In this document: positions 12,416-60,819 of the stretch, piece after piece
Position numbering within the stretch: the first letter of the stretch is position 1
How the letters are laid out: every line of letters begins with the position of its first letter
Origin: Vicinamibacteria bacterium
GTDB taxonomy: Bacteria; Acidobacteriota; Vicinamibacteria; Vicinamibacterales; JAENWD01
Length of the DNA: 64,000 nt
NCBI GenBank assembly: GCA_963697705.1
Contig: CAVOPA010000003.1
Location: 832,176-896,175 of the forward strand
Reading direction: 5' to 3'
Notes under the pieces: model-generated
Seen by the model: the letters and a program-made list of their open reading frames with translations, nothing else
Database searches by the model: none
What the model was told of the DNA's origin: nothing
Position numbers and translations under genes: made by a program

Positions 12416-12788
12416 TCAGCCGCGACCTGGGTTGGAGCGCGCGTTGCGCAGAATCACAGTTAGTACCTGACACCAAGCCGTTAGCCTCGCGCAGCAATGG
12501 CGTAGCTGCCTCGACGAGCGCCGGCCGCTTGTTGCTGATCACGCGGAGCCAAAAATACGACTCGCGCGCCTCCTTCAAAGCGATAGCGCCCTTTGCGATG
12601 AAATCTGCCTTGCTCTGTCCAGCAGAGGCCTCCTCGAGGTTCGAGCCTATGCTCGTAGCGGCCTTGAACAATTGCCAGATCAAATGCCGGGTGGTGGCTC
12701 GCAGGTCCCGAACGGAATCGCAGAAATCGATCACGTCGCAGGCGAAGTTGAACGCACGATCATGAATATCTCGCGGCTTCTGCGTCAC
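12416..12788 (-). CDS. Four-helix-bundle protein (23S rRNA intervening-sequence protein family, TIGR02436/PF05635-like), apparent frameshift near the 3' end
   Basis: FNFACDVIDFC...QLFKAATSIGSNLEEASAGQSKADFIAKGAIALKEARESYFWLRVI. After ...LLREANGLV the family-typical tail (QVLTVILRNARSNPGRG-stop at about 12416) is in the neighbouring frame. As sequenced, the ORF reads through into the IPMDH gene, giving the 507-aa track ORF. Confidence 0.75.
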
Positions 12789-12860: not shown

Positions 12861-13012
12861 ATGCGCCATCCGCCATCCGCATCCGCCATCCTGCATCCGC
12901 CATCCTGGCATCCGGCATCCGTCGCATTCGGCATCCGGCATTCGACATCCGGCATTCGACATTCATCGACATCCGACATCCGACATCCGGCATCCGGCAT
13001 CAGGCATCCGAG
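12861..13012. repeat. High-coordinate arm (CATCCG/CATTCG words, ~150 nt) of the same palindrome
   Basis: ...gcattcggcatccggcattcgacatccggcattcgacattcatcgacatccgacatccgacatccggcatccggcatcaggcatccgag. Ends 3 nt from the thiolase stop at 13015. Confidence 0.8.
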
Positions 13013-15814: not shown

Positions 15815-15881
15815 GGCCTGCCTAAAGGCAGGCACTACACGGGATCCACCTGCGCGAAAGGCGGGCACTACACGGGACTAC
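15815..15881 (+). repeat. Two REP-like hairpin units (GCACTAC family)
   Basis: ggcctgcctaaaggcaggcactacacgggatcca and cctgcgcgaaaggcgggcactacacgggactac. Confidence 0.75.
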
Positions 15882-15954: not shown

Positions 15955-18900
15955 CTAGAACTCGAACTTCAGACCGAGCTGCACTCGGCGCATGTCGGGC
16001 GCGAAAGGCGTACGAATGCCCTTGTAGCCGTAGATTGCATCGAAGCTGCTGATGTCGGCATTACCGCTGTCCACGAACATGTTCGGCATGGTTCAGCAGG
16101 TTGTATGCCTCGAAGCGGAACTGAACGGCATAATGGTCGTTGAACCGGATACGCTTGCTGAGCGTCGCGTCGACGTTCCACCATCCCGGACCGCGAAACG
16201 CGTCGCGCTTCGTCATGTCGGATGGATACGGGCCGTAGTCGCTCGTCCCCTGCACCGGGTGCACATACCCGCCGGCGAACGGAACAACCGGTGTGAGGTC
16301 GAGGAGCTTGAACTGGTTCGGGTCTCCCGTGGCCGCCCCGCCCGTCGCGCTCCGGCTGATGCCGACGGGATCCTCCATGCGCATGCAGAGCACGAGGCCG
16401 TTCGTGCAGTCGAAGATCGAGAACGAATAGCCCGTCCTCGCGTTGAACAGGAACGCCATCTGCCAGTCGCCGAACAAGGCCCGCTTGACCCCGTAACCAT
16501 CGTTGAAGAACGGCAGCTGCCAGATCCCGCTGAACGCGACGCGGTGCCGCACGTCGAACTCGGCGTATCCGTAGTCGAGCATCGGGTCGAATGCGTCGAG
16601 GTAACCCAGGTTGAAGTTGTTGCCCGCGATGTTGTCGCTGAACGTGCTGCTCAGGTTGTCCTTCGCCTTCCCGTAACGTGTACGAGCCGTTGAACTGCAG
16701 GCCCGTGTTCGCCACGCGACGGCTTTCGAGCGAGAACTGCACGCCGTGGTACTGCGAACGGCCGCGGTTGCCGCGCGTGTTGAACGCCGTGTACTGCGTA
16801 TTCGGACGCGCGGTTGCGCCGCCAGCTCCCAGGTAGACGAGCGCGGCACCGGGCTTGTTCGGGTCGGCCAGATCGTACAGCTTCCGCCCGAGCGACCCGG
16901 AGTACTCGACCTTCGCGACGAGGTTCGCAGCCACCTCGTGCTGGTACGACAGGCCGTAGAAGTGCGAGTAGGCCGTCTCGATGTTCTGGTCCACGTGCCT
17001 GACGCTGCCGCGCGGGATGGTCTTCGTCACACCGGCCACACCGCCGAACGGACCGGCCGAGTCTACGAAGATCGGCATCGTCGGAACGTCCGTCGGGGCG
17101 TCGATGGAGGCGACCAGATACTGGGGCGGGTTGAACAGCACGTTGTAGGTGACGTTGCCGAAGTTGCGCTCGTACGACATGCCGTACCCGCCGCGGACGC
17201 TCGTCTTGCCGTCCCCGCGGACGTCCCACGCAAAGCCGACGCGTGGCGCCCAGTTGTTCTTGTCGGGCTTCCACAATTTACCGATCGGGCTCTCGTTACT
17301 CGGGAGCACATGTCCGTGCGCGAGGTTCTGGACCAACTCCGCCGGGCTGCTCGTGTTCACCGACGCGTTCGGGTCGCCGTAATAGAAGTTCGAATCGTAC
17401 TTCGGGTCGCTCTTCGTCTGCGGTCCGTAGTACTCGTAGCGCATACCCAGGTTGATGGTCAGGCGGTTCCCGAGCGCCAGTTGTCGTTTGCGTACAGCGC
17501 GAACTCGTTGTAGCGGTTGTTGCTGAAGAAGCTCGGGAGCGGGACCGGGGTCGTGTAAGTCCCACCTGGGAAGCCGCCAGGATTGATCGCCGTCTGGAAG
17601 CGCGCGAGCCGGCCCAGAACGAAGTTGTCCAGGGACGGCAGCTGCAGCCGCAGTCAGGTTCAGCGCCTCGACGGAGTTCGCGTAGGCGCCGAACGTCCGC
17701 TCGTCCTTGATGTGCACGTAGGAGCCGCCGAACCGGAAATCGTGCTTGCCCTTGATCCAGGTCTGGTCCTGATACAGCTGGAACAGCTGCTGCGGGCCTC
17801 CAAACGGAATGGCGCTTCCCGGGCTCCAGGGCAGGTAGCCGGGGAATGCGATGCGGTACCTCTGTAGGCGCACCGGCGTCGTCGGGTTCATGTAGAGCGT
17901 CGGCTGCGGGTCACCGTTCAAGCGGCTGATCTTCCATCAGACGATTCCAGACCACCTTGCTCTGCGCGGTGAACGTGGGCGAGAAGACATGCGTGAACGA
18001 GCCGAGGAGGTTGTGGTTCTTGTTCAGATACCCCGTTTCGAACCCGTCGTACGGACTGGAGGCGTTCGTGCCTGGCTCTGCTTCCTGGTTCTGGTACGCA
18101 TACCGCACGTACAGCTGCGTGTTCGGGCCCATGCTGTAGTCGACTCGATTCACCCACTGATAGTTGTCCTGCGGGTCGCCGCCGCCGGCGTCGATCGGCA
18201 GGCTCTTCTCGACGCGTCCGAACACCGGGAGGTCCGCAGGCAGACTGTTGAAAGCTCCGGCATCGGCGCCCACGATCCCCGTCACGTCGGCGCGGGTCAG
18301 CGTCGGACCGTTGATGTTGGCTCCCCCGTACGCGTTGAAGAACGCCTGGGTCTCGGGTGCGGAAGCCGAGAGGAACTGAGGCGTCGGTACCCAGGAGATC
18401 TCCGTGTCCGCGCTGCGCACGCGGATGTACTCGAGGCTCGAGAAGAAGTGCAGCTTGTCTTTCACCACCGGGCCGCCGATGCTGAAGCCGGTCTGATCGC
18501 GGCGGTACTTCCCCTTGTCGATGTCGTTCGACGTGTTGTCGTAGGAGTTGGCCGTCAGCTTCTCGTTTCGGAAGAACTCGTAGGCCGTGCCGCGGAACGT
18601 GTTCGTGCCCGACTTGGTGGCTACGTTGACGATGCCGCCGGTGGCGCGGCCGTACTGCGCCGAGAAGTTGTTGGTGATGACGCTGAACTCCTGAACGGAG
18701 TCGAGCGGCACGTCCTGGCCGACGGTCGCGTCGAACTCGTTGTTGTTGGCCGAACCGTCGAGCAGGATGTTCGTGCTGGCCGAACGGGCGCCGTTGATCG
18801 AGTATCCGGTGCCGCGGTCCGACGCGAGGTCGCGCGACACGTTGCCCGAGACGCCGACCAGGTCGTAGACGTTTCGCGTGAGGGTCGGCAGCTCGCGGAT

Positions 18901-19343
18901 CTGCGACTCCGATATCGTCGTGGCCTGCTCCGCGTTCACCACGTTGACGGTCGGCGTCTCAGACACGACCTGGATCGTCTCCGACGTGCCTGCCAGGCCC
19001 GAGCTTCGGGTTGAACTCCATGGCGCCGCCCACCGGCACGATGACCTTGCCCGGAGTTCTTCGCAAAACCGGCGAGCTCGGCAGAAATTTCATACGTGCC
19101 GGGCTGCAGGTTCGTGAAAACGAAACGGCCGTTCGAGTCGGTCACGGCCGAGCGCGAGACCCCCGTGCCGACGTTGGTCGCGGTGATCGTCGCACCGGGC
19201 AAGACACCGCCCTGTTCGTCCATGGCCGTGCCGCTGATGCGGCCGGTCTCGGTCTGCCCGAGTGCCAGCGCCGGCACGAGCAGCACCACGGCCAGCAGCA
19301 TCCAGAATGCGCGGCACAACGTCCACGGCCTTCTCGATCTCAT
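15955..19343 (-). pseudogene. CarboxypepD_reg / TonB-dependent receptor-like outer-membrane protein, about 7 frameshifts
   Basis: N-terminus with signal and GRISGTAMDEQGGVLPGATITA...SNGRFVFTNLQPGTYEISAELAGFAK. Plug-like INGARSASTNILLDGSANNNEF. Terminal strand ...RRVQLGLKFEF-stop at 15955. The continuous protein can only be read by switching frame near 19045, 18995, 17920, 17650, 17475, 16680 and 16085. Confidence 0.8.
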
Positions 19344-19836: not shown

Positions 19837-22770
19837 ATGAAATCTCGAATTCTAGCCTTCGTCGCGGCCCTGATGGTCGCGAACGCTGGCTACGGATGGG
19901 CCCAGGAAACCACAGGGTCCATCGCCGGCCGTGTGTCCGACCCGCAAGGGCTGGCGGTGCCCGGCGCCACGGTGACAGTCACCGGCGCGCGGGGAGCGCA
20001 GACCTTCACCGCGGACGCGGAGGGACGTTTCAACGCTCCGTTCCTTACGCCTGGCACCTACACGGTTCGGGCAGAGCTGCAGGGCTTCAAGGCGACCGAG
20101 CAGAAGGACGTGGTCGTGCGCCTCGGGCAGCGCGTCGATCTGCCGATCACCATGGCAGTGGGTGGCCTCACCGAAACGGTTGAAGTCACCGGAGGATCGC
20201 CGACGATAGACACCTCGACGACGACCGTCGGAGCGGTGATCAACTCTGACCTGTTGCAGCGCGTGCCGATCGGCCGGCGCTTCAGCGACGCACTCTACAT
20301 CGCGCCTGGCGTGACTGACAGCGGCGCGGGCGCAGCCAACCCGTCCGTCGCCGGAGGCAGCGGCCTCGAGAACCAGTACGTCGTCGACGGCGTGAACATC
20401 ACGAACACCGGCTACGGTGCGCTTGGCTCGTACTCCATCTACCACGGGTCGCTCGGCAATGGCGTCACCTACGACTTCGTGAACGAGATCCAGGTCAAGA
20501 CCGCGGGCTACGAGGCCGAGTACGGGCAGTCCACGGGCGGTGTCGTGAACGTGCTCACCAAGAGCGGCAGCAACAGCCTGCGCGGCAGCGTGTTCGGCTA
20601 CGCGCGGCCCTCGGCGCTCGAAGGCGAGTTCAAGCAGATCCAGACGGAGAACGGCTCCATCAACACGTCCGGCACGCAGACGAGCGACGCCGGGTTCACG
20701 GTCGGCGGCCCGGTGCTGCGCGACAGGATCTTCTTCTTCGGCGCGTACAACCCATCGTGGGAGACGCGCACGATCACCGCGCCGGCCGGCTTCCCGCTCG
20801 AGAGCCTCGGTGAGGTCGATCGCAAGCGGCACATCAACTCGTACTCCGCCAAGGGGAGCGCGCAGCTCGGGAACGGTCACCGCGTCGACGCGTCGTTTTT
20901 CGGTGACCCGGCAAAGGGCGACATGGGACCACAGCGGCTGTCGTCGCTCGTCCGCACCGATACATCGGCGTTCAGCTCACTCGAGTACGGCGGTCACAAC
21001 CAGACGCTGAAGTACGACGGTGTCATCCGTCCGAGCTGGCTCGTCGAAGCGACGTGTCTCGCGCGCGAAGAACAACCTGCAGGAGTTTCCGTCGGTCAAC
21101 TCGTTCCAGATTCAGGACACCACCGTGGTGCCCAACATCGTGAGCGGCGGCATCGGGTTCTACGAGGCGGGCAACGAGGGCATCAACCTGCAGTACCAGG
21201 CCAAGTCCACACACATCTTCGGCGGACACCAGATCCGGTACGGGGTGCTCTACGAGGACATCGAGTACAACAACATCAACCAGTACACGGGCCCGACCTT
21301 CACGCTGTCGGACGGGCAGCAGACGGCGACCGGAGCGAGCGTCCGCGTGCTGAGCGACCCCAATGTCGGGAAGATCTACCGCGCGATTCGGGCAAACCTG
21401 AACACGGACCGCTCGACGACGCAGCAGTACACCAGCTTCTTCGCGCAGGACACGTGGCGGGTGGGCAACCGGCTCACGATTCGACCGGGCATCCGCTACG
21501 AGCAGCAGAAGCTGGTCGGAACGCTTGACGGACTTCAAGTGGAGCGGCAACTGGGCGCCACGCATCGGCGCCACCTATGACGTGCTCGGGAACGGCCGCT
21601 CGAAGCTGTATGCGAACTGGGGCCGCTTCTTCGCCAAGGTGCCGAACGATCTCGCGGCCCGTGCGCTGTCGGCCGACGCGGGCGTGACGCGCGCGGACTA
21701 CTACGACGCCGCGCTGACGCAGCCGATTCCCGAGGGTGTGCCCGCCGGGCCCAACCTCGAGACGCGACACCTGAACTTCGCCGGGCTCTCGCCGTCGGAT
21801 TTCGATCCGGACGCCAAGTCCACCTACCTGGACGAGACGCTGGTCGGGTTCGAGTTCGAGCCGTTCACGAACCTGAACGTCGGCGCGCGGTGGGTCCACC
21901 GCCGGTTCGGGCGGATTCTCGAGGACGTGGGCACCGTGCCGATGGTCGGGTTCTTCCTCCCGGACAGCGGGGCGGACAGCGTCGAGTACTTCATCACCAA
22001 CCCAGGACCGAAGACGCCTGTCGTTCCGATTCCCGGCTTCGACATCAGCTTCGAAAACGCGATCCACGACTACGACGCCGTAGAACTGACAGCAGACAAG
22101 CGGTTCGGCAACAACTGGGGCCTGCAGGCGTCCTACCGCTGGTCGCGGCTGTATGGCACGTTCGAGGGCTTCTTCAGGAACGACAACGGCCAGTCGGACC
22201 CGGCGATCACCTCGCTGTTCGACTTCCCGACCAACGACCCGAGCTACGCCGCGATCGGCGTGCCGGAGTTCGGCTTCCGCGGCGATATCCGGTATCTGGG
22301 GTCGGCCGGCGCCGGTCCGCTCCCGACCGATCGGCCGCACCAGGTCAAGGTGTACGGCAACTACTCGATGAACTGGGGCCTCAACCTGGGCGCGGGCGTG
22401 ACAGCTCGGTTCCGGGATACCGCTCACGGCCCTCGCCGCGAACCCGTACTACGAGAACGAGGGCGAGATTCCGGAAGGGCCTCGCGGCTCGGGCGTCCAG
22501 ACGGCGGACGGGTTCAAGACGCGGACGCCGTTCACCTACGACGTCAACCTGCACACCGACTATGCGGTCAAGATGGGCGGGACGCGGAGGGTCGTGCTCC
22601 TGGCCGACATGTTCAACCTGTTCAACGTGAGGCGCGCGACGGGCTACGATCAGGACACGGAGTCCTCGTTCGGTGCGCTGAACCCCGATTACGGGCAGCC
22701 GGTGATCGCCCGGGTGCCGCAGTTCCAGACGCCGTTCCAGCTGCGGTTGGGCGCGCGGTTCGAGTTCTAG
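19837..22770 (+). pseudogene. CarboxypepD_reg / TonB-dependent receptor-like outer-membrane protein, about 3 frameshifts
   Basis: RBS GGGGAG then MKSRILAFVAALMVANAGYGWAQETTGSIAGRVSDPQGLAVPGATVTV...; ends ...FQLRLGARFEF-stop. Frame switches are needed near 21052, 21522 and 22400. Confidence 0.8.
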
Positions 22771-22908: not shown

Positions 22909-22980
22909 ACCTCCCGCCTCCAGCCTCCAGCCTCCAGCCCTCCAAGCCCCTCAGCCCTCAGCCTTGGTTGGCCTTAGCCG
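22909..22980. repeat. One-armed simple-word tract (CCTCCAG / CCCTCAG words)
   Basis: cctcccgcctccagcctccagcctccagccctccaagcccctcagccctcagccttggttggccttagccg. No complementary arm seen nearby. Confidence 0.7.
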
Positions 22981-26398: not shown

Positions 26399-26410
26399 CA
26401 CGTACCGGAA

Positions 26411-26515
26411 GGGCTAAAGGCTAAGGGCCAAGGGCTTAGGGACGGCCGGGGTTAAGGCCCAGAACTCGACTAGCCCTCAGCGGTGCCCTTAGCCCTCAGC
26501 CTTTAGCCCTCAGCC
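26411..26515. repeat. Word palindrome, GGCTAAGGGCC-type, between convergent genes
   Basis: Left gggctaaaggctaagggccaagggcttaggg (26411-26441). Right cccttagccctcagcctttagccctcagcc (26486-26515), ending 1 nt from the M14 stop codon. Confidence 0.8.
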
Positions 26516-26516
26516 T

Positions 26517-29336
26517 TCAGTAGAGCGCGTTGAAGAGCAGCTTGAAGGTAGCGTGGGGCTGGGCGCGGAACTGGGGCGGGAAGGCGAAGAGGACGACACG
26601 GCCGGCGCCATATGGTGCGTCGAGCAGCGCGTGGCGGGTGGCGATGCGATCGGCGCCGAGCAGCCAGCCGCTCATGAGCACGACGTCGGCGGGCGCGTAC
26701 TGCGCAATGCTCTGCACCGTCGGATCGGCAGTGTCGAAGGCGCGCGAGGCCTCGAAATAGGCGGCGCTCTCACGCGCCATCCCCCAGGCCACCGGCTGGT
26801 TGATGTCGACGGTGATCCGCACCACAGACCCCGGGCAGTAGAACACCGAGCGATCCAACCCGCGCGTCACGTCGCGAATGCGATCGAACACGCCGCCGAA
26901 GCGTTCGAGCGGGAGGTCGCTGGCCGCATCGAGGGTCACGAGTGTGCCGCCATCGTGCACGAAGCGCTTCAGCGCCTCCACCCCGGACTCGCCGATCCCG
27001 CCCTGGTACTCCGGTGGCACGGGGTTGGAGGGCCCATCGTGCCGGGATGACGCGGAGGGCTCGTGGCCGCGAACGATCGCCGCCGGTGACTGGCGCGGCA
27101 GGATGATGACGTCGAACGACCTGCGGAGATCGCCGGCGCGGACATCGCGGTCGACCAGCGTCGCGTATGGGAATCCGTACTGCTCCAGCAGCCACCGCGT
27201 CCAGCCTTCGTCGATATTGGCGACCCAGCTCTTATACAGGCCGATGCGGCGTGCGGCGATGGGCTGCGTGGGGTCCGCAGGCGCGCGATCGATTGACCAC
27301 GCGCGGAGACCGAGATCCTCCACCAGGCGGCGGACCAGCGCTGCGAGCCCCGGTCCGCGGTTTCGCGCCCCGGCGGGCTGCGATCGGCTGAATGCCATGT
27401 CGCTATCGCCGGACGCCCGGCTCGACTCGGGCGCGACAAGAGCCTTTCCTCCGCGGCCGGCCACCTTGATGACCCACGCTCCCGCTGGCAAGGTGACGCC
27501 CGGGCGGGGACTGAAGGGAGCGCGGAGGCGGCTGACGGCTGCGCCGTGCGCCAGCAGCCGGTTGACGGCGAGTGCGCTCACGTTCGCACGGTCATCAATC
27601 ACATACCCCCACGGGCCGGAGCCGGGTGCGATGGTGATGGCGCCCGCCGCGCGCGGTGCCGTCTCGAGGCGCACGAGGGCCGTCGTGTCGAATGGCGTGG
27701 CGACAGGAACGGCGGTGACGCCCATCTGATACGCGAGCGTCCAGCCGGCCGTGTCGTAGGGCGGGATTGGCGGTCCACCCGGGTGCGCGCGCAGATCCGG
27801 GTACACCTGGCGCTCGAGCAGGTCCTTGGCAAAAGGCCGGAACGGCTGCGCGAGCAGCACGGCGTGCGTACCGGCGGGATACGTGACCCCGTCCGCGGCG
27901 AGCGGCGCCGTCGCACGATGCACCTCGATTCCGCCCTTCATCAGCGTGTCGATGAACGCCATGCTCGCCGGCACGTCGTGCTGCGGGGCAGGAATGATGT
28001 AGGCCACAGGCGCTTCGGTCCGGCCCTTGGCGATCTGCCGCGCGCCGACCTGGTAGATGCCGTAGAGGAGCTGCTCGCGCCACTTCGCCGCAAGGTCGAG
28101 GACGCCCAACGAGCCCGTGAGCATGTAATCGACGGCGTCGGCGAGGTGCAGCGTGCCGCCCTTCCAGGGATTCGGATACGTCACGCTCGGCACGAGCGTG
28201 GACACGCCGTTCGAGAGCGTCCGCGGGAAATCGGCGGGGTCGTACGTGTACGGCGTGGCCGAGGCGTGGCCGGTCTCCGTCAGGATGCCGATGATGTTGT
28301 GGAAATAGCTCGTCGTGCGGACCGAACCGTTGTACCAGATCGAGAACGAGTATCGCGAGATGACGCCGTCCTTTCCCTCGCGCTCGAACCGGTCCTGCAT
28401 CGCGCCGCCGACCAGATCCACGCCGCGCACGATCTGCGGATCGATGTTGGGGTTCACCGGGTCGGGAAACGGCGGCACGAAGATGCGCGGCGGGTACGTG
28501 CCCTGATGCTGGTTGTACATGATTTGCGGCAGCCACTCCGCGAACAGCAGGTGACTGACGACCTGCGTTTCCTTCTGCGTCTGCATGTAGCCGTCGCGGT
28601 TGTTGTCGTGCCCGACATACTTCTGATAGAGCCACGGCATCGGACTGTCCTGGTGCGGCGTGTGGAGCGTGCGCCGGTACCAGTCGACCACCATGTTCAT
28701 GCCGTCCGGGTTGATGCACGGCGCGAGAACGAGGATCACGTTGTCGCGGATCGCCTGCATCTCGGCGCTGTCGTCGGTGGCCACACGGTAGGCGAGCCGG
28801 ATCGCGTGCTGCGCGGTCGCGACCTCGCTCGCGTGGAGGCCGCTGTCGATCCAGACGACTGCCTTGCCCTCCCGCGCGAGCGCGCGCGCCTCGCGGTCGC
28901 TCAAGCCGCCGACGAGCGCGAGCCGCCGCGAGATGTCACGGTAGTGCCCAAGCCGGGCGAGGTTCGCTTCCGACGAGATGATCGCGACGAGCATCTCGTT
29001 GCCTTCAGTGGATTGTCCCGCGATCTCGAGCTGCACCCGGTCGGAGGCCGCATCGAGCCGCTGGAAATACGCGCGCAGCTGCCGGAAGTCCGCGAGCGTG
29101 TAGTCGTCGCCGGGCTCGAACCCGAGGACGTCGCGCGGCGAAGGCACCCCGGTGGGCGCCTGCGGCGCGGCGCGCAGCTGTCCGGCAGGCTGCGGGAGCA
29201 GCAGGAGCGCGCACACTCCGAGGAGCTGCAGGAGATGTCCTGCGCACGTCCGGGTCGGCACGGGAGCTAGAGTGCCCGACGCTGCGAGGCTGCGCAACCC
29301 GACGCTGTCCCGTCGGCCAATGGCAGCTTTATCCAT
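26517..29336 (-). CDS. M14-family zinc carboxypeptidase-like protein, long form with C-terminal GATase1-like module
   Basis: GLHASEVATAQHAIRLAY, CINPDGMNMVVDWY, KYVGHDNNRDGYM. C-terminal IGLYKSWVANIDEGWTRWLLEQYGFPY...FDVIILP. Confidence 0.85.
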   Translation of the reverse strand: MDKAAIGRRDSVGLRSLAASGTLAPVPTRTCAGHLLQLLGVCALLLLPQPAGQLRAAPQAPTGVPSPRDVLGFEPGDDYTLADFRQLRAYFQRLDAASDRVQLEIAGQSTEGNEMLVAIISSEANLARLGHYRDISRRLALVGGLSDREARALAREGKAVVWIDSGLHASEVATAQHAIRLAYRVATDDSAEMQAIRDNVILVLAPCINPDGMNMVVDWYRRTLHTPHQDSPMPWLYQKYVGHDNNRDGYMQTQKETQVVSHLLFAEWLPQIMYNQHQGTYPPRIFVPPFPDPVNPNIDPQIVRGVDLVGGAMQDRFEREGKDGVISRYSFSIWYNGSVRTTSYFHNIIGILTETGHASATPYTYDPADFPRTLSNGVSTLVPSVTYPNPWKGGTLHLADAVDYMLTGSLGVLDLAAKWREQLLYGIYQVGARQIAKGRTEAPVAYIIPAPQHDVPASMAFIDTLMKGGIEVHRATAPLAADGVTYPAGTHAVLLAQPFRPFAKDLLERQVYPDLRAHPGGPPIPPYDTAGWTLAYQMGVTAVPVATPFDTTALVRLETAPRAAGAITIAPGSGPWGYVIDDRANVSALAVNRLLAHGAAVSRLRAPFSPRPGVTLPAGAWVIKVAGRGGKALVAPESSRASGDSDMAFSRSQPAGARNRGPGLAALVRRLVEDLGLRAWSIDRAPADPTQPIAARRIGLYKSWVANIDEGWTRWLLEQYGFPYATLVDRDVRAGDLRRSFDVIILPRQSPAAIVRGHEPSASSRHDGPSNPVPPEYQGGIGESGVEALKRFVHDGGTLVTLDAASDLPLERFGGVFDRIRDVTRGLDRSVFYCPGSVVRITVDINQPVAWGMARESAAYFEASRAFDTADPTVQSIAQYAPADVVLMSGWLLGADRIATRHALLDAPYGAGRVVLFAFPPQFRAQPHATFKLLFNALY

Positions 29337-39996: not shown

Positions 39997-40075
39997 TGCA
40001 AAATGCACGATGCACGATGCGACGATGCGACGATGCGACGATGGACAGACTGACATGTCGGATGCGGGATGCCGG
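39995..40075 (+). repeat. Direct octamer/heptamer word tract between convergent genes
   Basis: aatgcaaaatgcacgatgcacgatgcgacgatgcgacgatgcgacgatggacagactgacatgtcggatgcgggatgccgg. Confidence 0.75.
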
Positions 40076-42221: not shown

Positions 42222-42375
42222 GGTAAAGGGCCAAGGGCTGGGGCCAGGGGCCAGCGCTTGCGCGCCATGACGATCGCTCCCGCGTTGGCCACGGCCCTCC
42301 TGCGTCTTCGCGTGTCCGCAGCAGCAGCAGCTCGACTGAAGTCTTTAGTCTTGGCCCTCTAGCCCGCAGCCCCTT
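42222..42375. repeat. Weak GGGCCAAGGGC-word palindrome in the tsaD-yjbQ spacer
   Basis: Left gtaaagggccaagggctggggccaggggcc. Right gtctttagtcttggccctctagcccgcagcccctt. Complementary words are present but the register is not collinear. Confidence 0.45.
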
Positions 42376-43508
42376 CAAAGCGCCAGGCTCGCCTCAGCGT
42401 TGAGATCCCAGCCCGCGCGGACGCCGGCGTGGTAGGCACGCAGGCCGGCGGCGGCGATCATCGCCGCGTTGTCGGTCGAGAGCGCCAGGCTCGGGATGAA
42501 CACGGGCAGCCCTTCGCGCGCGCCGCGTGCCAGGGCGTCGGCGCGCAGCCGGCTGTTCGCCGACACGCCGCCGGCGATGCCCACGCTAGCGGCACCGAAA
42601 CCGCGCGCCGCCGCGAACGTGCGATCGAGCAGCGTCTCGACGACGGTTCGCTGGAAACTGGCGCAGAGGTCCGCAACCTGTGCAGGGGTCAGGATTTCGC
42701 CATCAGGGTTGTTGCCCGCCTGAAGGCGGGCACTACCGGGATCACGGCCTCTGCGCTGACCATGCGTCGTCTTGCTCGCGACTCCACCTGGGTCGCGGAC
42801 CACGCGCAGCACCGCGGTCTTGAGGCCGCTGAAGCTGAAATCGAGACGGCCGGGATCATCTGGTGTGCGCCGATCCGCATGGGTGATGCGCATCTGCGGA
42901 AATTCGAAGGCGCGGTCGTTGCCATCGCGGGCGGCCCGATCGATCGCCGGCCCGCCCGGATACCCCAGACCGAGAAGCTTCGCGACCTTGTCGTAGGCTT
43001 CCCCCGCCGCATCATCTCGCGTGCGGCCCAGCGTGCGATAGTCGCCCGGCGCGGTCACTGCGTAGAGGCTCGTGTGCCCACCCGACACAACCAGCACCAC
43101 GGCTGGCAATGGCAGTGGGCCGTTCTGGAGGAAGAGCGACTCGATGTGGCCCGCCAGGTGGTGCACCGGCACCAGCGGCAGCCCGCGGGATGCGGCGAGC
43201 GCCTTCGCGAACGACACGCCGACGAGCAGTGATCCGACCAGCCCCGGCCCGGCGGTGACCGCAATCGCGCCGATGTCGTCCAGCGTCGAGCCCGCCTGCG
43301 CGAGGGCGCTCTCGACCACGCCGCAGATGTCTCGCACGTGCTGTCTCGACGCGATTTCCGGCACGACACCGCCCCACTCGCGGTGGATGTCCGCCTGGGA
43401 CGCGACCACGTTGGACCGCACCATCCAGGGACGTGCAGGGTCGTCCACCTCCTCGACGACCGCCGCCGCCGTCTCATCGCAGGAGGTCTCGATGCCGAGC
43501 ATCCGCAT
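42375..43508 (-). CDS. tsaD: tRNA N6-adenosine threonylcarbamoyltransferase
   Basis: [45 protein letters not shown]. Carries an extra segment containing a REP-like element (see findings). Confidence 0.93.
42712..42749 (+). repeat. REP-like hairpin unit (GCACTAC family) inside the tsaD coding sequence
   Basis: ttGCCCGCCTGAAGGCGGGCACTACcgggatcacggcc. The 23-nt core is identical to the array units at 48466-48570. Confidence 0.85.
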
Positions 43509-44627: not shown

Positions 44628-44740
44628 GTAGTACGGCCTTCAGGCTGGCCCCTGCGTCAATGCCGTCGCCACACGAGCTGACTCGTTACTGTCTGGCCTT
44701 CGCGACTTCGCGACTTCTAGTGCCTGCCTTCGGACTGGCC
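44628..44740 (-). repeat. Two degenerate REP-like units in inverted orientation (cdd-mtnA spacer)
   Basis: gtagtacggccttcaggctggcc (44628-44650) and ctagtgcctgccttcggactggcc (44717-44740), compared with the reverse unit GTAGTGCCCGCCTTCAGGCGGGCC. (cttcgcga) x2 lies between them. Confidence 0.6.
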
Positions 44741-46061: not shown

Positions 46062-47001
46062 ATGGCTACTGCGAATCTGCGCGTCGTCCTCATCCTGGCG
46101 CTGACGGCCGGCTTCGCGACGGCGAGCGCCAGCCGTGCAGCAACGCAGCCTGCGGCTACCACCTTGTCGGTGACCCGCGCAGGCCCCAGAGGCGAAGTCG
46201 GCAGCCTCGCCGAGGCGAACGAGGTGCGGGTCGTGTTCTCGGAGCCGATGGTCTCGCTCGGCCGCATACCGCGCGTCGAGACCGCGCCGTTCGTCCGGAT
46301 CTCTCCGGCAGTGGCTGGTACATTTCGCTGGTCCGGAACAACGACGCTGATCTTCACGCCGGACCCGAAGCGGCCGCTCCCGTTCGCCACGCGGTTCGAC
46401 GTCACGATCACGTCCGCCGCGACGGCGGTGAGCGGGCGGCGGCTCGCCACGCCGTACACGTTCACGTTCATCACGCCTGCGGCGCGTCTGCTGCGCACGA
46501 CGTGGTCACGGCGGGGCGGCCTCTCCAGCGCGCCGGTCGTCGTGCTGCTCCGCTTCAATCAGCGTGTGCAGCCTGCGGATGTCTTCTCGCACCTGGCCGC
46601 GAGCTTCGAGCCGCACGACTGGGCGGAGCCCTCGCTGTCGGACGATTCGGTCGCGCGCACGACGGCTGCCGATCCCACTCGACGAGCGTCTGCGCGTACG
46701 GCCGGCGATCGCGATGGGCGAGACGCGCGCCAGACGTGACCCGTCCGCCATCGTCATCGCCAACCCGCCTTCCGGTGCGACCTACTCTATCGATCCGACC
46801 CTGCGGCGCGAGTTCCAGACGCTCGCGCTCCGAGCGGTGACGGCTGAGCACACGCGCGTGGAGCGGCACATCGACGGCCGCACAGTGGGCAGTTCGACTT
46901 CGGAGAGCGCCGTGATGTGGCCGCTCCGCGCAGGTCGGCACCGTATCTCGGCCAACGACCCGCGCGGCCGAACCGCCGAAGCTACGATCGTCGTGCGGTG
47001 A
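46062..47001 (+). pseudogene. Deletion remnant: alpha-2-macroglobulin-like N-terminus joined to a PBP1C C-terminal domain
   Basis: Frame A (46062-46739) has a signal plus an MG1-like fold: EVRVVFSEPMV...ISPAVAGTFRWSGTTTLIFTPDPKRPLPFATRFDVTI. Frame B (to 47001) has a BiPBP_C-like tail: IANPPSGATYSIDPTL...HIDGRTVG...WPLRAGRHRISANDPRGRTAEATIVV. Confidence 0.6.
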
Positions 47002-47006
47002 CTTCC

Positions 47007-48326
47007 TCAGAGCAGCATTGACGCGATCGCGGCGTTGATCAGGGTGGCAAGAAAGCCCACGAGCAACGCCCGAGAGGCGAGCCGGGCCAGGTCGCCTCGG
47101 CGCGTGGGGGCCATTCCGCCGATGCCGCCGAGCTGGATGCCAATCGAAGCGAAGTTCGCGAAGCCGGTGAGCGCATATGTGGCGAGCGTGTACGACCGCG
47201 GGCTCAGCGTGTGGCGGTACTGCGTCGTCAGCTTCACGAACGAGACGAACTCCGTGGCCACGAGCTTCGTGCCGAGAAGATCGGCGACGGCCGGCACATC
47301 AGCACGCGGCACGCCCATGAGCACGGCGGCAGGTGAGAAGACCACCGCGAAAACGCTCGCGAGCGTCAGGCCCGGGCGAATTGCACCGAGCACGAAGTCA
47401 AACAGCGCCAGGAACGCCAGGAAGGCGATGAGCATGGCGGCGACGTTCAGCGCCAGGGTCAGTCCGTCCGCGGCGCCAGCGGCCGCAGCGTCGATGACGT
47501 TGACGTGCTGGCGCTCGACGGCCGTTTTTACGCGCCCCTGAGTCTCGGGGCGTTCGAGCTCGGGCAGCATTATCTTCGAGAGGTACAACCCACACGGTGC
47601 CGCCATGACGCTCGTCGTCAGAATGGCAATCGGGTCTGCGCCGAGCCCGATGTAGACGGCCATGACCCCGCCGGAGATAGTGGCCATCCCGCCAACCATC
47701 ATCGCGAGCAGCTCCGACTGCGTCATCCGGGGCACGTACGGTTTCACGATGATTGGCGCCTCGGTTTGGCCCATGAAGACGTTCGCCGCCGCCGACAATG
47801 TTTCTGCGCCGCTCGTTCGCATCAGGTACATCATGGCGCGCGCCATCATGGCGACGATGAACTGGAGGACACCAAAGTAGTACAAGACCGTGAAGAACGA
47901 CGATATGAAGATGATCGTCGGCAGCGCCGTAAACGCGAAGACGAACCCGCGCGGCAGCACCTTGCCGAGGACCTGCTGGTTCGCGAGATCACCAAACACG
48001 AACTGCGAGCCCAGGTTCGTGAACTCGAGAAAACGCGCGACACCTCGCGCCACCGCGCTGAACAGCTCATAGCCCGGGCGGACGCCGTTCACCTCGAGCT
48101 TCAGGATGAAGAACGCCAGCAGCAGCTGCAGCGCGATGCCCCAGCCAACCGTGCGCCAGCTCACGGCGCGCAGGTTGGAGGAGGCGGCGGCCACGATGGC
48201 GATGAAGCACAGCGCGCCGATGCCGCCCTGCAGGCGGGGATCGATCACCCCCTGCGAGAGCCAGGCGAGTGCGGCGAGTACAACGGCGACGCCGCCGGCG
48301 GCGATGCGTAACGAGAGATTCGACAT
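47007..48326 (-). CDS. Concentrative nucleoside transporter (NupC/CNT family)
   Basis: GFVFAFTALPTIIFISSFFTVLYYFGVLQ, GAETLSAAANVFMGQTEAP, TGFANFASIGIQLGGIG. Confidence 0.88.
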   Translation of the reverse strand: MSNLSLRIAAGGVAVVLAALAWLSQGVIDPRLQGGIGALCFIAIVAAASSNLRAVSWRTVGWGIALQLLLAFFILKLEVNGVRPGYELFSAVARGVARFLEFTNLGSQFVFGDLANQQVLGKVLPRGFVFAFTALPTIIFISSFFTVLYYFGVLQFIVAMMARAMMYLMRTSGAETLSAAANVFMGQTEAPIIVKPYVPRMTQSELLAMMVGGMATISGGVMAVYIGLGADPIAILTTSVMAAPCGLYLSKIMLPELERPETQGRVKTAVERQHVNVIDAAAAGAADGLTLALNVAAMLIAFLAFLALFDFVLGAIRPGLTLASVFAVVFSPAAVLMGVPRADVPAVADLLGTKLVATEFVSFVKLTTQYRHTLSPRSYTLATYALTGFANFASIGIQLGGIGGMAPTRRGDLARLASRALLVGFLATLINAAIASMLL

Positions 48327-48397
48327 GTGCGCTGAATCCTGGTCAGAGTCTCGTGGCGGCGACGTTTCGGCTGCGCTCGATGCGCTCGCGGGATCGC

Positions 48398-48632
48398 GGC
48401 CCGCCTGAAGGCGGGCACTACGTGACGATCACGGCCCACCTTGAGGCGGGCACTACGGACATCACGGCCCGCCTGAAGGCGGGCACTACGCGACGATCAC
48501 GGCCCGCCTGAAGGCGGGCACTACGCGACGATCACGGCCCGCCTGAAGGCGGGCACTACGCGACGATCACGGCCCGCCTGAGGCGGGCACTACGACGATC
48601 CGGCCCGCCTGGCGGGCACTACCTGACGATCC
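48398..48632 (+). repeat. Tandem array of 7 REP-like hairpin units (31-35 nt) between deoA and nupC
   Basis: Units start at 48398, 48433, 48466, 48501, 48536, 48571 and 48602. Consensus GGCCCGCCTGAAGGCGGGCACTACGCGACGATCAC. Three central units are identical. The last unit overlaps the deoA stop at 48619. Confidence 0.9.
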
Positions 48633-49920
48633 CGTGAATGAGGGGAACCGGCGGGGGCGGCTCGGCGCTTATCGTCACGGCGCGGGCGAGCAGCTCCCGT
48701 GCCTCGTCGGACCGCGCGCCGGCCCCGGGGTGCAGGCGGACGATCGGGTCCCCTGCCTCGACCCGGTCCCCCGGCTTGGCCAGCAGCACGAGCCCCGCGC
48801 CCGGATCGATCCGCGTGTCGAGGCGCTCGCGGCCGGCGCCGAGCACCATCGACGCGCGGCCGATGAGCGCGGCGTCCATCCCGGCCACGAAGCCGGAACG
48901 CGCAGCCGTGAACGGATCCGCGGCGGCCACGTGCGGCAGGCGGGCACGGTCCTCGATGATGCGGCGATCGCCGCCCTGGTTTTCCACCACCTGCCCGAAC
49001 TTCTCGAGCGCCGCACCCGAGGCGAGCGCCCGCCGCACGCGCTCGCCGGCGTCACGATCGTCGCCGGCTCCGGCGAGTCGCAGCATGCGCGCGGCAAGCG
49101 CCACGCACAGGTGCTCCAGATCCGAGGGGCCGCGCCCGGCCAGCGTGTCCAGGCACTCGCCGATCTCGAGCGCGTTGCCGATCGCGCGACCGAGCGGCGC
49201 ATCCATCGCGGTGAGCATGGCCTCGGTCTCGAGCCCCACCCGCGCGCCGATTGTCACCATCGCTTCAGCCAGCCGGCGGGCGTCGGCCTCCGTTTTCATG
49301 AAAGCGCCGCGGCCGACTTTCACGTCGAGCACCAGCACGTCGGTGCCCTCGGCGATCTTCTTACTCATGATCGATGACGCGATGAGCGGAATGCTCTCGA
49401 TCGTGCCGGTGACATCGCGCAACGCGTACAGTTTCTTGTCGGCGGGGGCGATATCCGCCGTCTGGCCGATGAAGGCACACCCGATCCGCTGCAGCGCCGC
49501 GAGGAACGCGTCGCGCTCCATCGCGACGCGGAACCCCGGAATGGACTCCAGCTTGTCGATGGTGCCGCCGGTGTGCCCGAGCCCTCGTCCTGAGCTCTTG
49601 GGCACCACCACTCCGCAGGCGGCCACGATCGGCGCGACCACGATCGACGTCTTATCGCCGACGCCGCCGGTGCTGTGCTTGCCTGCTTTCGTGCCCGGGA
49701 TTGCGGACAGGTCGACGCGGCGCCCCGATGCAACCATCGCCTCTGTGAGCCAGCCCGTCTCGTCCGCGCTCATGCCGCGAAGCAGCATGGCCATCAGCAG
49801 CGCCGACGTCTGGTACTCCGGGATGGTGTTCGCCGCGACGCCCGAGACGAAGAACTCGAGTTCCTCGCGCGTGAGAGCGGCGCCGTCCCGCTTCCGGACG
49901 ATGATGTCGACAATGCGCAT
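48619..49920 (-). CDS. deoA: Thymidine / pyrimidine-nucleoside phosphorylase
   Basis: MRIVDIIVRKRDG, KHSTGGVGDKTS, GRGLGHTGGTIDKLESIPG. The track ORF upstream extension to 50226 overlaps the divergent M14 gene. Confidence 0.92.
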   Translation of the reverse strand: MRIVDIIVRKRDGAALTREELEFFVSGVAANTIPEYQTSALLMAMLLRGMSADETGWLTEAMVASGRRVDLSAIPGTKAGKHSTGGVGDKTSIVVAPIVAACGVVVPKSSGRGLGHTGGTIDKLESIPGFRVAMERDAFLAALQRIGCAFIGQTADIAPADKKLYALRDVTGTIESIPLIASSIMSKKIAEGTDVLVLDVKVGRGAFMKTEADARRLAEAMVTIGARVGLETEAMLTAMDAPLGRAIGNALEIGECLDTLAGRGPSDLEHLCVALAARMLRLAGAGDDRDAGERVRRALASGAALEKFGQVVENQGGDRRIIEDRARLPHVAAADPFTAARSGFVAGMDAALIGRASMVLGAGRERLDTRIDPGAGLVLLAKPGDRVEAGDPIVRLHPGAGARSDEARELLARAVTISAEPPPPVPLIHGIVR

Positions 49921-49928
49921 GAGGCCGG

Positions 49929-49958
49929 GGAAAAGTATAGGGCAGACTATACTTTTCC
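49929..49958. promoter_or_regulatory. Perfect 12-bp AT-rich inverted repeat in the 43-bp deoA / M14 divergent spacer
   Basis: GGAAAAGTATAG-ggcaga-CTATACTTTTCC. Each arm contains TATACT read towards the adjacent gene. It lies 9 nt from the deoA start and 6 nt from the M14 start. Confidence 0.7.
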
Positions 49959-49963
49959 GTTCG

Positions 49964-52654
49964 ATGCCTGCCGCCTCCCCGCGATCGCACCTGACGCATA
50001 CCGGCCGCCGCCGGTTCCTGCCCGTCGTCCTGCTCGGCGTGCTCGCGACGCTCGCGTCTGGCGCGGCTGTGCGCGGCGAGTCCGCGGTCCCGTCCCCTGA
50101 GCAGTTCTTTGGCTTCCGCATGGGCGCCGACCGCCGCATCGCCGGCTGGTCGCGCATCGTCGAGTATTTCCGCACGGTCGACCGCCTCTCCGACCGCGTG
50201 ACCGTGCAGGATCTCGGGCCGACCACCGACGGCCGTCCCTACCTGCTGGCCGTCATCTCGGCGCCGGACACGATTGCCGACCTGCCGCGCTACCAGGCGA
50301 TGCAGAAGCGCCTCGCCGATCCGCGCATCACCTCGCCGGCGGAGGCCGATCGGATCGCGCGGGACGGCAAGGTGGTCGTGCTCATTGGCGCCAACGTCCA
50401 CGCCAACGAGATCGGCAGCAGCCAGACGGCCAACGACCTGCTGTATTGGCTCGCGACGTCCGACGATTCCCGCGTCAAGCGCGTGCTCGACAACGTGATC
50501 CTGCTGCTCGTGCCCTCGCAGAATCCCGACGGTCAGCAGATGATGACCGACTGGTACGCGCAGACGGTCGGCACACCCTACGAGGACGCGCCGCTTCCGG
50601 AGCTGTACCAGCGCTACGCGGGTCACGACAACAACCGCGACAGCTACATGCTCACGCAGGTCGAAACGCGCTACCTCGCCCAGATCACCTACCGCGACTG
50701 GCTGCCCGAGGTGTACCTCGATCAGCATCAAATGGGCAGCGGACGCGCGCGCATCTTCGTGCCGCCGTTCAAGAACCCGCCCAACCCCAACGTGGATCCG
50801 CTCGTGTGGAGCGAGGTGAACCTGCTCGGACAGGCAATGGCCGCCCGCCTGCAGGAGGCGGGCAAGCCAGGCGTGATGTGGGGTGAGATCTACAGCGGCT
50901 TCTGGCAAGGTGCGAACAGCACCAACCCGTGGTGGCACAACATGGTGGCGCTGCTCGCCGAAGTTGCGGGCGCACGCGGCGCGTCGCCCATTTTCCAGCA
51001 CACGCCACCGGGCGCGTCCCTCTCAGGCGCCGAGACGAAGATCGAGTCGGGCGACATGCCGATCCCTCCGCCACCGGACCTTCAGTTCCGGATGAACTAC
51101 CCGGAGCCCTGGCTTGGCGGTCGCTGGACCTTCGCGGACGTTGTCGAGCACCATCGGCTCGCGGCAGAAGGCCTGCTCGAAGCCGCGGCGGATCGGCGCG
51201 AGAGCCTGAAGCGCAACTTCTACCTGATGAACCGGCGGACCGTCGAGCGGTTCTCCAGCGGTCAGCCGTTCGCGTTCATCGTGCCTCGGGCACAGCATGA
51301 CCCGGGGAGCGCCGTGCGCCTGCTCGGTCTCATTCAAGACGGCGGCGCCGACGTCGACGAGGCCAGCGCGCCGTTCACGGCGGGGGGCGTGCAATATCCG
51401 GCAGGGACGGCCGTGATCCGCCTCGCGCAGCCGTTCGGGCGATGGGTGAAGGATCTGCTCGAAGCGCAGTCGTACCCGGACATCCGGTGGCCCTCGCCTT
51501 CCGCGCCCATCGATCGGCCGTACGACATGACCGCGTGGACGCTCGGCCTGTTGATGGGCGTCACCGTCGTCGAAGTGCCGGCGCCGTTCGACGCGGCGCT
51601 CACGCGGCTCGGCCGTGACCTGGCGTGGCCACGGGGAGTTGTGACCGGCAGCGGCACCACATGGGTGCTGTCGCACAGCCCGAACGCGTCGAGCACGGCC
51701 ACATACCGGCTGCTCGCCGCAGGCGCCGACGTCTCGTGGGCGACCGAACCAGTCCGCGTGGGCGAACGGCAATTCGAGAGCGGCGCCGTCATCGTTGGCA
51801 ACGTGGCGCCGGGGCTGATGGCCACACTCGCAGCAGACCTCGGCCTCGAGATCGCGGCCACGTCGCAGCCGCTGCGGTCAGAGCGTCTCGCGCTTCGGCT
51901 GCCGCGCGTGGCGTTGTACGAACCATGGGGCGGTCTCGCCGATGCGGGTTGGACGCGGTGGATCTTCGAGCAACACGACGTTCCGTACACGCGCGTGCGG
52001 CATGACGACGTGCAGGATCCGTCGTTCGGCCGCCGGTTCGACGTGCTCGTCCTGGCCGATGCGCCAGGGACGCTCCTGCTGCGGGGCCTGCCGGGCGCGA
52101 ACGTCATGCCGCGCCACAAGGGCGGTCTCGGTGACACCGGCGTCGCAGCCCTTCGCCGCTTCGTGCAAGGGGGCGGGACGATTATCACGCTCGGCAACAG
52201 CGCGTTGTTCGCCATCGAGCACCTCGGCGTTCCCGTGGCCAACGTCATCCCCACCGACGATCCCGACGCGTTCTTCTGCCCCGGCTCTCTACTCCGCCTG
52301 GACGTCGATACCGAGCACCCAATCGGCTACGGCATGCCGCCCGGTGCGGCGGCGATGTTCGTGAACAACGGCGGCTATGCGATCACAGACGGTCCGAACA
52401 CCGCCGTGACCACAGTGGCACGCTACCCTCAGGGTCCGCTGCTCCTGAGCGGCTGGATGCTGGGCGAACAGCGCCTCCGCGGAGCCGGCGCCGTGCTCGA
52501 CGTGCCGATGGGCCGCGGACGCATCATCATGCTGACCTTCAGGGTGCAGCACCGGGCGCAGACGTCAGGCACGTTCAAGTTGCTCTTCAACGCAATTCTC
52601 TATGGGCCGGCCGCCGCGGCGCGGCAGGTCGGCGCTCCAACGCAGCAATTCTGA
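49964..52654 (+). CDS. M14-family zinc carboxypeptidase-like protein (paralog of 26517-29336)
   Basis: ATG at 49964, Arg-rich then hydrophobic signal RRRFLPVVLLGVLATLASGAA. NVHANEIGSSQ, SQNPDGQQMMTDWY, RYAGHDNNRDSYM. C-terminal VALYEPWGGLADAGWTRWIFEQHDVPY...FDVLVLAD. Confidence 0.85.
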   Translation: MPAASPRSHLTHTGRRRFLPVVLLGVLATLASGAAVRGESAVPSPEQFFGFRMGADRRIAGWSRIVEYFRTVDRLSDRVTVQDLGPTTDGRPYLLAVISAPDTIADLPRYQAMQKRLADPRITSPAEADRIARDGKVVVLIGANVHANEIGSSQTANDLLYWLATSDDSRVKRVLDNVILLLVPSQNPDGQQMMTDWYAQTVGTPYEDAPLPELYQRYAGHDNNRDSYMLTQVETRYLAQITYRDWLPEVYLDQHQMGSGRARIFVPPFKNPPNPNVDPLVWSEVNLLGQAMAARLQEAGKPGVMWGEIYSGFWQGANSTNPWWHNMVALLAEVAGARGASPIFQHTPPGASLSGAETKIESGDMPIPPPPDLQFRMNYPEPWLGGRWTFADVVEHHRLAAEGLLEAAADRRESLKRNFYLMNRRTVERFSSGQPFAFIVPRAQHDPGSAVRLLGLIQDGGADVDEASAPFTAGGVQYPAGTAVIRLAQPFGRWVKDLLEAQSYPDIRWPSPSAPIDRPYDMTAWTLGLLMGVTVVEVPAPFDAALTRLGRDLAWPRGVVTGSGTTWVLSHSPNASSTATYRLLAAGADVSWATEPVRVGERQFESGAVIVGNVAPGLMATLAADLGLEIAATSQPLRSERLALRLPRVALYEPWGGLADAGWTRWIFEQHDVPYTRVRHDDVQDPSFGRRFDVLVLADAPGTLLLRGLPGANVMPRHKGGLGDTGVAALRRFVQGGGTIITLGNSALFAIEHLGVPVANVIPTDDPDAFFCPGSLLRLDVDTEHPIGYGMPPGAAAMFVNNGGYAITDGPNTAVTTVARYPQGPLLLSGWMLGEQRLRGAGAVLDVPMGRGRIIMLTFRVQHRAQTSGTFKLLFNAILYGPAAAARQVGAPTQQF

Positions 52655-57045: not shown

Positions 57046-57128
57046 CATTCGCAATTCGGAATTCGGAATGCGGCGCTCGGAATTAGAGCCGACTTCGGAG
57101 CGCGGAGTGCGGAAAGCGAGGCACGGAG
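57046..57128 (+). repeat. CGGA-word tract beside csbD
   Basis: cattcgcaattcggaattcggaatgcggcgctcggaattagagccgacttcggagcgcggagtgcggaaagcgagg. Confidence 0.7.
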
Positions 57129-60730: not shown

Positions 60731-60819
60731 AAATGTCGGATGCAGGATGGCGGATGCCGGATGCCAGAAAGTCCTTGGCGTCACATTCGACATCCAGCAT
60801 CCGACATCCCGCATCCTCT
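60731..60819. repeat. Word palindrome, GGATGNCG-type, between convergent genes
   Basis: Left aaatgtcggatgcaggatggcggatgccggatgccag. Loop aaagtccttggcgtcac. Right attcgacatccagcatccgacatcccgcatcctct, abutting the rng stop at 60818. Confidence 0.8.

Follow-up and report, generated by a model that had tools for sequence, protein, structure and literature searches.

In a 64,000-nucleotide (nt) stretch of contig CAVOPA010000003.1 from a Vicinamibacteria bacterium (assembly GCA_963697705.1, positions 832,176 to 896,175; hereafter the window, with a G+C content of 67%), we found a head-to-tail array of seven GTAG-type repetitive extragenic palindromes (REPs) between deoA, which encodes a thymidine/pyrimidine-nucleoside phosphorylase, and nupC, which encodes a nucleoside transporter. 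REPs are small, GC-rich, hairpin-forming repeats that move through bacterial genomes in the form of single-stranded DNA hairpins. On sequence criteria the array is a recent, unstable and lineage-specific REP cluster lodged in a gene junction that was ancestrally coupled. A dedicated regulator is unlikely because copy number varies between conspecific assemblies, relatives lack the array and the same element occurs at unrelated sites. We therefore favour, at a probability of roughly 0.8, the view that the REP cluster is selfish or neutral and that the cell tolerates what it does to the mRNA.

Structure of the array

The array and its units, numbered in the direction of transcription, were as follows.

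48392 to 48631, minus strand: head-to-tail array of seven GTAG-type REP units with a period of about 35 nt, between deoA and nupC (Tandem Repeats Finder, unit-by-unit script and covariance model)
48602 to 48622, minus strand: unit 1, deoA-proximal, GTAG-T-GCCCGCC-A-GGCGGGC with a 1-nt loop; RNA hairpin of -11.2 kcal/mol (sequence and fold)
48571 to 48593, minus strand: unit 2, with a 3-nt loop (TCA); -14.5 kcal/mol (unit-by-unit script and fold)
48466 to 48570, minus strand: units 3 to 5, three identical 35-nt copies of GTAGTGCCCGCCTTCAGGCGGGCC followed by GTGATCGTCGC (identity by script)
48434 to 48456, minus strand: unit 6, with a variant TCAA loop and a G-U pair (GGTGGGC); -13.4 kcal/mol (unit-by-unit script)
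48398 to 48421, minus strand: unit 7, nupC-proximal, a perfect consensus copy followed by the unique sequence GCGATCCCGCGAGC (sequence and unit-by-unit script)

Tandem Repeats Finder placed the array at 48392–48631 with a period of 35, 7.1 copies, 90% matches and a score of 368. The 23-mer GCCCGCCTGAAGGCGGGCACTAC had seven matches in the window at up to three mismatches, against 0.00 expected from shuffled sequence, and a unit-by-unit script found the seven minus-strand hairpins at spacings of 29, 34, 35, 35, 33 and 35 nt. The seven-unit head-to-tail hairpin array that an earlier note had described between deoA and nupC from the letters alone was thus confirmed. The same script showed that the three central copies (48466–48500, 48501–48535 and 48536–48570) are identical, again as the note had stated, and these units 3 to 5 are the youngest part of the array.

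On the transcribed minus strand the unit reads GTAG-T-GCCCGCC-TTCA-GGCGGGC-C and is followed by a linker of 8–12 nt, the commonest linker of the deoA–nupC array being GTGATCGTCGC. In all seven units the GTAG head is followed by T and the stem. Six of them combine the stem GCCCGCC/GGCGGGC with a loop of 3 or 4 nt, with one G-U pair in unit 6, and one array unit, with a 1-nt centre, folds with 6 bp. The shortened loops previously reported for the outer units were located in the two deoA-proximal ones, where they measure 1 nt and 3 nt. A conserved ACTAC that had been called a tail is indeed present in the units on the plus strand; on the transcribed strand, however, it is the 5′ GTAG head by which GTAG-type REPs are defined, so that its designation as a tail did not hold. 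RNA fold energies of the array units ranged from -11.2 to -15.3 kcal/mol each, one unit folded as DNA gave about -9.5 kcal/mol, and the RNA fold z-score of the array region was -6.15 relative to shuffles. A covariance model matched all seven units of the array (E 1.9e-07 to 2.8e-04).

The REP rule of Quentin et al. (PMC6006769) calls for GTAG or GTGG 0–2 nt 5′ of a fully paired stem of 7–20 nt with a loop of 2–5 nt. Di Nocera, De Gregorio and Rocco (2013, PMC3733652) describe the GTAG super-family by a terminal GTAG, a GC-rich palindrome of 6–13 bp and a short loop. With a GTAG head, a 1-nt gap, a perfect 7-bp stem and a 4-nt loop, the array units are GTAG-type REPs as judged from these motifs. 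Since the palindrome is perfect, the REP of the window groups with the 'perfect palindrome' REPs (PMC8266576), and not with the bulged type of Escherichia coli.

Several other classes were considered and rejected. A CRISPR array was dismissed on the grounds that the 8–12 nt linkers are themselves repeated and that Pfam scans of the window's open reading frames (ORFs) returned no cas domains. All seven units lie on the same strand without alternating orientation, which excludes a BIME, and the absence of an inverted partner among the units excludes a REPIN for the window's array. An intrinsic (Rho-independent) terminator was rejected in the absence of a U-tract and of any terminator prediction in the array, and a coding repeat was rejected because a period of 35 cannot be divided by 3. 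Rfam 15 gave no match at gathering thresholds over the whole window; when the region 48200–48800 was searched with E values up to 10, only sub-threshold chance matches (che1 and miRNA families) were returned. There were no tRNA or tmRNA genes in the window.

Copy number and the deoA–nupC junction

The array is bounded by the following features.

48619 to 49920, minus strand: deoA, thymidine/pyrimidine-nucleoside phosphorylase of 433 amino acids ending in ...IHGIVR* (Pfam and NCBIfam models above cut-offs)
48327 to 48391, minus strand: unique spacer from the array to the nupC ATG (sequence)
47007 to 48326, minus strand: nupC-family (CNT) nucleoside transporter of 439 amino acids, downstream of deoA in the pair (all three CNT-transporter Pfam domains)

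The deoA stop codon, TAG at 48619–48621, lies within the GTAG head of unit 1 (AGG-TAG), and the first stem begins 1 nt past it. The overlap of the array with the deoA stop codon, and the end of the protein in ...IHGIVR*, were therefore as the earlier note had read them. Downstream, the array ends 65–71 nt before the nupC ATG, the whole gap between deoA and nupC being about 290 nt, and a Shine–Dalgarno-like AGGA is present at 48337–48340, 10 nt before the ATG. Against the NCBIfam nupC model the nupC ORF scored 387 bits, short of the cut-off of 442 bits. Within 46900–50400 no sigma-70-like promoter was predicted, nor was a terminator predicted inside the array. None of the array hairpins is followed by a U-tract; they continue into GUGAUCGUCGC, indicating that they are not intrinsic terminators.

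The exact DeoA protein of the window is encoded on two further metagenome assemblies (ERZ25039579 and ERZ25039585), and these revealed that unit number is polymorphic. Contig_86816 of ERZ25039579 (locus L048), which upstream of the array shares 99.5% identity with the window, carries 9.1 units, and contig_58606 of ERZ25039585 (L131), about 99% identical to the window, carries 2. The 7- and 9-unit alleles have the same first two (short-loop) units and the same last two (TCAA variant and consensus), so that only the central block differs, and the 2-unit allele is made up of a first unit in decayed form and the last unit, joined by one linker. The idea that the array expanded from its centre, which had been proposed from the degraded outer units, was thereby supported, the conspecific 9- and 2-unit alleles sharing their edge units with the window and differing in the middle. 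In L048 and L131 we also observed that deoA, nupC and tsaD are called as fragments through single-base indels, for example one G missing in the tsaD of L048. Fine sequence differences inside the arrays of these two loci are accordingly unreliable and partly sequencing error, and there is a small chance that assembly itself collapsed or expanded an array. Elsewhere in the window, an 8-nt tandem array (ATGCGACG, 40003–40043) numbers 5.4 copies both here and in L048, and 6.4 in L131, a further small copy-number difference among the conspecific assemblies. Searches for exact protein matches returned none for nupC, for a long-start RNase G ORF or for an FG-GAP protein, probably owing to other start codons chosen by gene callers.

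We then compared the junction with that of 80 deoA relatives from soil metagenomes, 58–72% identical. Nearly all encode proteins of 432–433 amino acids that end in ...(L)IVGEVR and are closed by TGA. The DeoA of the window has the same length and terminal Arg, whereas its stop is a TAG supplied by the REP head. A REP at the end of deoA was absent from all 80. Where enough downstream sequence was available, nupC lay next to deoA in 69 of 71 relatives, and in 63 of these 69 the deoA stop overlaps the nupC start with no spacer (TGATG in 60), which argues that tight translational coupling was the ancestral state of the junction. At two related loci the deoA–nupC junction was expanded too (L049, 1528–1870, and L115, 1650–1940); it is filled there by inverted arrays of heptamers of the types CCCAACT/GTTGGGA and GAGAACC and contains no REPs, suggesting that this junction has been colonised by repeats repeatedly.

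Dispersal of the REP family

Further copies of the element were found in the window, which holds four REP loci in its 64 kb with nine strong and three to four decayed units. The family covariance model gave nine strong full-length matches in the window (E 2e-7 to 3e-4), all on the minus strand. Outside the array the copies were:

42714 to 42736, minus strand: solitary consensus REP lying in frame within tsaD, where it encodes GSARLQAGN, preceded by GGCCGTGATCCCG, which resembles the array linker (23-mer scan and covariance model)
15816 to 15871, minus strand: second head-to-tail cluster, with one good unit bearing the compensated stem GCCTGCC/GGCAGGC, an adjoining degenerate unit and a third, more decayed one at about 15780 (scans and covariance model)
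44628 to 44740, plus strand: two degenerate REP-like units in opposite orientation in the cdd–mtnA spacer (marginal covariance-model E values of 0.73 and 6.8)

The essential tRNA-modification gene tsaD (42375–43508, minus strand) has a stretch of 38 residues (42675–42788) where solved homologues have 5, and this insert with its REP is common to L048 and L131.

The distribution of the family was examined by scanning one genome per species for GTAGTGCCCGCCnnnnGGCGGGC. At least 47 stretches were recovered, and among the matches listed almost all were metagenome-assembled genomes (MAGs) of Acidobacteriota (Vicinamibacterales, Terriglobia and Acidiferrales among them). This sharing in itself points to an Acidobacteriota source for the window, though short of a taxonomic assignment. 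Among these matches, units stood alone, in head-to-tail pairs or in inverted doublets whose GTAG faces outward, the REPIN arrangement. Such doublets were seen in L001, L006, L012, L020, L022 and L023, and single hairpins with GTAG on both sides in L008, L011, L037 and L042. In these Acidobacteriota MAGs the same hairpin forms the core of a conserved element of about 90–120 nt; these elements are mostly bounded by the inverted ends TGTGAGAACTC...GAGTTCTCACA and are MITE- or REPIN-like, unlike the array of the window. The GTAG-stem pattern also occurred in MAGs carrying other labels, namely Hymenobacteraceae (L003, 688–710), Chitinophagaceae (L040, 7821–7843, on a 7.6-Mb contig) and Bifidobacteriaceae (L035, 5105–5127). 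Of these three only L040 has the exact consensus 23-mer with the TTCA loop, L003 having the loop TCAT and L035 the loop TTTA, and the three occurrences may reflect transfer, mis-binning or chance. A TAG of the family closes a long ORF in 3 of 98 units (L015, L027 and L028), a count that is anecdotal, the filter on G+C at third codon positions being too crude for lower-GC genomes.

Covariation of the stem was tested on thirty distinct variants picked by similarity to the consensus alone, with no requirement for pairing. Within this set, whose limit of up to four substitutions somewhat favours pair-preserving variants, 94% of stem cells were paired and four of the seven pairs were altered on both sides (15 cells). 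The covariation score was reached by none of 500 shuffles, and pairing fell to 24–47% when the partner strand was slid by 1–3 columns. Compensated stems included GCCCGGC/GCCGGGC, GTCCGCC/GGCGGAC, GCCCACC/GGTGGGC and GCCTGCC/GGCAGGC. The covariation indicates that the hairpin is a maintained feature of a dispersed family. The label 'REP-like' given earlier to the hairpin was borne out by its GTAG head, stem and loop, by its recurrence in the window and in Acidobacteriota genomes and by these compensatory changes; absence of the motif beyond the array, which would have counted against the earlier reading, was contradicted by copies elsewhere in the window and across many Acidobacteriota MAGs.

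The mycobacterial interspersed repetitive units (MIRU-VNTR loci) resemble the array in being direct tandem repeats in operons that touch the upstream stop codon and vary in copy number between strains. MIRUs differ, however, in their length of 40–100 bp, in having no GTAG-headed palindromes and in forming short ORFs that preserve coupling, and they have no sequence relation to the units described here. REP and BIME clusters are also known from operons, examples being malE-malF and hisJ-hisQ. BIMEs alternate REP orientation (Y and Z types), have defined linker motifs and are built of imperfect, bulged palindromes, whereas the units of the window keep one orientation and are short perfect palindromes like those of the 'perfect palindrome' group (PMC8266576). 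The REP/BIME elements of E. coli and Salmonella (PMC12306157) share with the array the nature of intercistronic GC-rich hairpins transcribed with the operon, and they protect upstream mRNA from 3′ exonucleases. As for the REPINs of Bertels and Rainey, other Acidobacteriota MAGs contain inverted doublets of the window's hairpin family in which GTAG faces outward; the array itself has no inverted pair, and its growth was probably by slippage and not by transposition of doublets.

The closest likeness was to the GTAG families of PMC3733652, a text that already describes tandem clusters that include flanking DNA, TAG stops provided by GTAG and in-frame intragenic copies. According to that text, GTAG-1 families of Thauera sp. 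MZ1T, P. syringae and X. campestris form clusters of units tandemly reiterated with flanking DNA, as in the window. GTAG families further share complementary stem variants, a GTAG-supplied TAG stop of the upstream ORF, in-frame intragenic copies and sites between co-directional genes near the upstream 3′ end. By contrast, no Acidobacteriota family is mentioned in the sections available, where Acidobacteria appear only with tyrosine transposases flanked by terminal inverted repeats, and the stem and loop sequence is peculiar to the family of the window. An Acidobacteriota GTAG family and a long, purely head-to-tail array are thus beyond that catalogue, within the compass of those sections.

Proposed origin and possible effects of the array, and other features of the window

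In other bacteria REPs are mobilised by a RAYT (TnpA-REP) transposase. We propose that one REP landed exactly at the end of deoA, where its GTAG head would now give the stop (AGG-TAG), and that replication slippage or unequal recombination subsequently multiplied this REP, along with some 12 nt next to it, into head-to-tail copies. The outcome would be an unstable minisatellite, seen with 2, 7 or 9 units in the three conspecific assemblies. The linker GTGATCGTCGC resembles the final deoA codons GGG ATC GTC AGG, suggesting that the amplified unit was a REP plus the last deoA codons; in L049, the nearest relative that lacks a REP, the homologous deoA codons read ATC GTT.

Several observations weigh against this origin or against a selfish or neutral cluster in general. 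A linker-like sequence (GGCCGTGATC or GATCCCG) also precedes the copies at 42714 and 15816, which are preceded by GGCCGTGATCCCG and GATCCCGT, respectively, so that the linker may belong to the element and not have been copied from deoA. Either the whole array period may have been copied to these two places or the linker may be part of the element; the exact 10-mer GGCCGTGATC has only four occurrences outside the array in the window. No RAYT or Y1 transposase was detected among the window ORFs tested (Pfam, about 40 ORFs, no Y1_Tnp), nor in 128 related loci by a motif scan, in which a regular expression for HxH...YxxNP was run on six-frame translations of the window and those loci and gave one unrelated match only. 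There are only four REP loci within 64 kb, and both comparison assemblies, L048 and L131, have frameshift-type indels in tsaD, nupC and deoA. Finally, head-to-tail dimers of GTAG REPs are rare according to PMC3733652, whereas the array of the window is purely head to tail. Two further candidates were set aside. A 9-nt match (CGCATGGTC) between an odd linker of L048 and the tsaD insert was rejected, that 9-mer being expected about 1.5 times in the window by chance, and the ORF between two inverted REPs in L010 is CN-hydrolase-like by sequence inspection and not a transposase.

The position of the array suggests how it may act on the transcript. It would abolish the ancestral translational coupling, and nupC would as a result now depend on its own AGGA ribosome-binding site. 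As mRNA, hairpins of -11 to -15 kcal/mol would probably impede 3′-to-5′ exonucleases and so protect the deoA part. In E. coli, REPs influence mRNA decay, and those situated less than 16 nt away from a stop codon cause ribosomes to stall (PMC12306157). Because the first stem begins 1 nt after the deoA stop, the first hairpin may similarly hinder termination of deoA translation. These effects are probably side effects tolerated by the cell and not the work of a selected seven-hairpin device.

We consider it unlikely that the array is instead a selected device, kept as an attenuator or 3′-exonuclease barrier that sets phosphorylase against transporter levels from one transcript. Such a function would fit an array that sits between two co-directional genes, is transcribed in sense as seven stable RNA hairpins (fold z-score -6.15) and stands in place of the tight translational coupling kept by nearly all relatives, and it has a precedent in the REPs of E. 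coli, which stabilise upstream mRNA, attenuate and stall ribosomes less than 16 nt from a stop codon (PMC12306157). Unit number, however, is 2, 7 or 9 in assemblies about 99% identical; the array is absent from the 80 relatives, and 63 of 69 have no deoA–nupC spacer at all. The hairpins lack the U-tracts of intrinsic terminators and the same element sits at unrelated places, including within tsaD, while the identity of the central units indicates very recent slippage and not conservation.

Somewhat less probable still is a contingency locus, in which slippage in unit number (2, 7 or 9) would act as a heritable rheostat that resets the deoA:nupC ratio within the population. Unit number would then vary the protection from exonucleases, the stalling of ribosomes at the stop codon and the read-through into nupC, and a variable ratio would have replaced the fixed 1:1 translational coupling of nearly all relatives.

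It is very improbable that a single REP or dimer was inflated by mis-assembly of repetitive reads. One conspecific assembly does have only 2 units, and the comparison assemblies contain indel errors, but two assemblies made independently agree in having a long array (7 and 9 units) and in its edge units, the array of 240–320 bp is below long-read length and its units are not all identical, unlike simple stutter. Least probable of all is an operator array whose palindromes bind a nucleoside-responsive regulator or a nucleoid protein acting on the operon: the sites are palindromic, regularly spaced and beside nucleoside catabolism genes, and REP clusters of E. coli bind gyrase and IHF, yet unrelated loci, and many genomes of distantly related Acidobacteriota, carry the identical motif, the position is the deoA 3′ end and not a promoter, and no regulator gene is adjacent. 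We thus retain a selfish or neutral REP cluster as the preferred explanation.

The window also contains a second class of repeats, distinct from the REPs, in the form of tandem arrays of 7-nt units in many intergenic regions (4279–4545, 7258–7395, 9768–9893, 11066–11231, 12867–13010, 22910–22964, 26409–26520, 42228–42254, 57047–57084 and 60733–60816). These are usually paired, two mutually complementary arrays flanking a spacer of 40–230 bp, for example (AATGCAC)n...(GTGCATT)n and (AAGGGCC)n...(GGCCCTT)n, and the longest consists of 20 copies of CATCCGG. This class may be less well described than REPs. Between punA and nupC (46062–47001, plus strand), an ORF with an N-terminal Big_5 domain overlaps another that has only a PbpC C-terminal (BiPBP_C) domain. 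The two look like the deletion remnant of a larger gene pair, and they separate deoA–nupC from punA–cdd–mtnA–tsaD. At 15969–18966 and 21020–21580, TonB-dependent receptor and outer-membrane barrel domains are spread over several adjacent ORFs, perhaps as a result of frameshifts or as pseudogenes. For an isocitrate/isopropylmalate dehydrogenase, the N-terminal part of the longest ORF (11265–12788, minus strand) matches the '23S rRNA-intervening sequence protein' family, reflecting either a fused small gene or an over-extended start.

No feature of the array alters the current understanding of REPs. REP arrays of this kind make MAGs of a single species differ in assembly and in gene calling, and they may serve as variable-number tandem repeat markers. 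The array adds soil Acidobacteriota of the Vicinamibacterales type to the range of GTAG-type REPs and provides a clean natural example of a REP wedged into an otherwise strongly conserved stop/start overlap. Its three natural alleles, with 2, 7 and 9 units, are usable to test how REP number bears on mRNA decay, termination and polarity.

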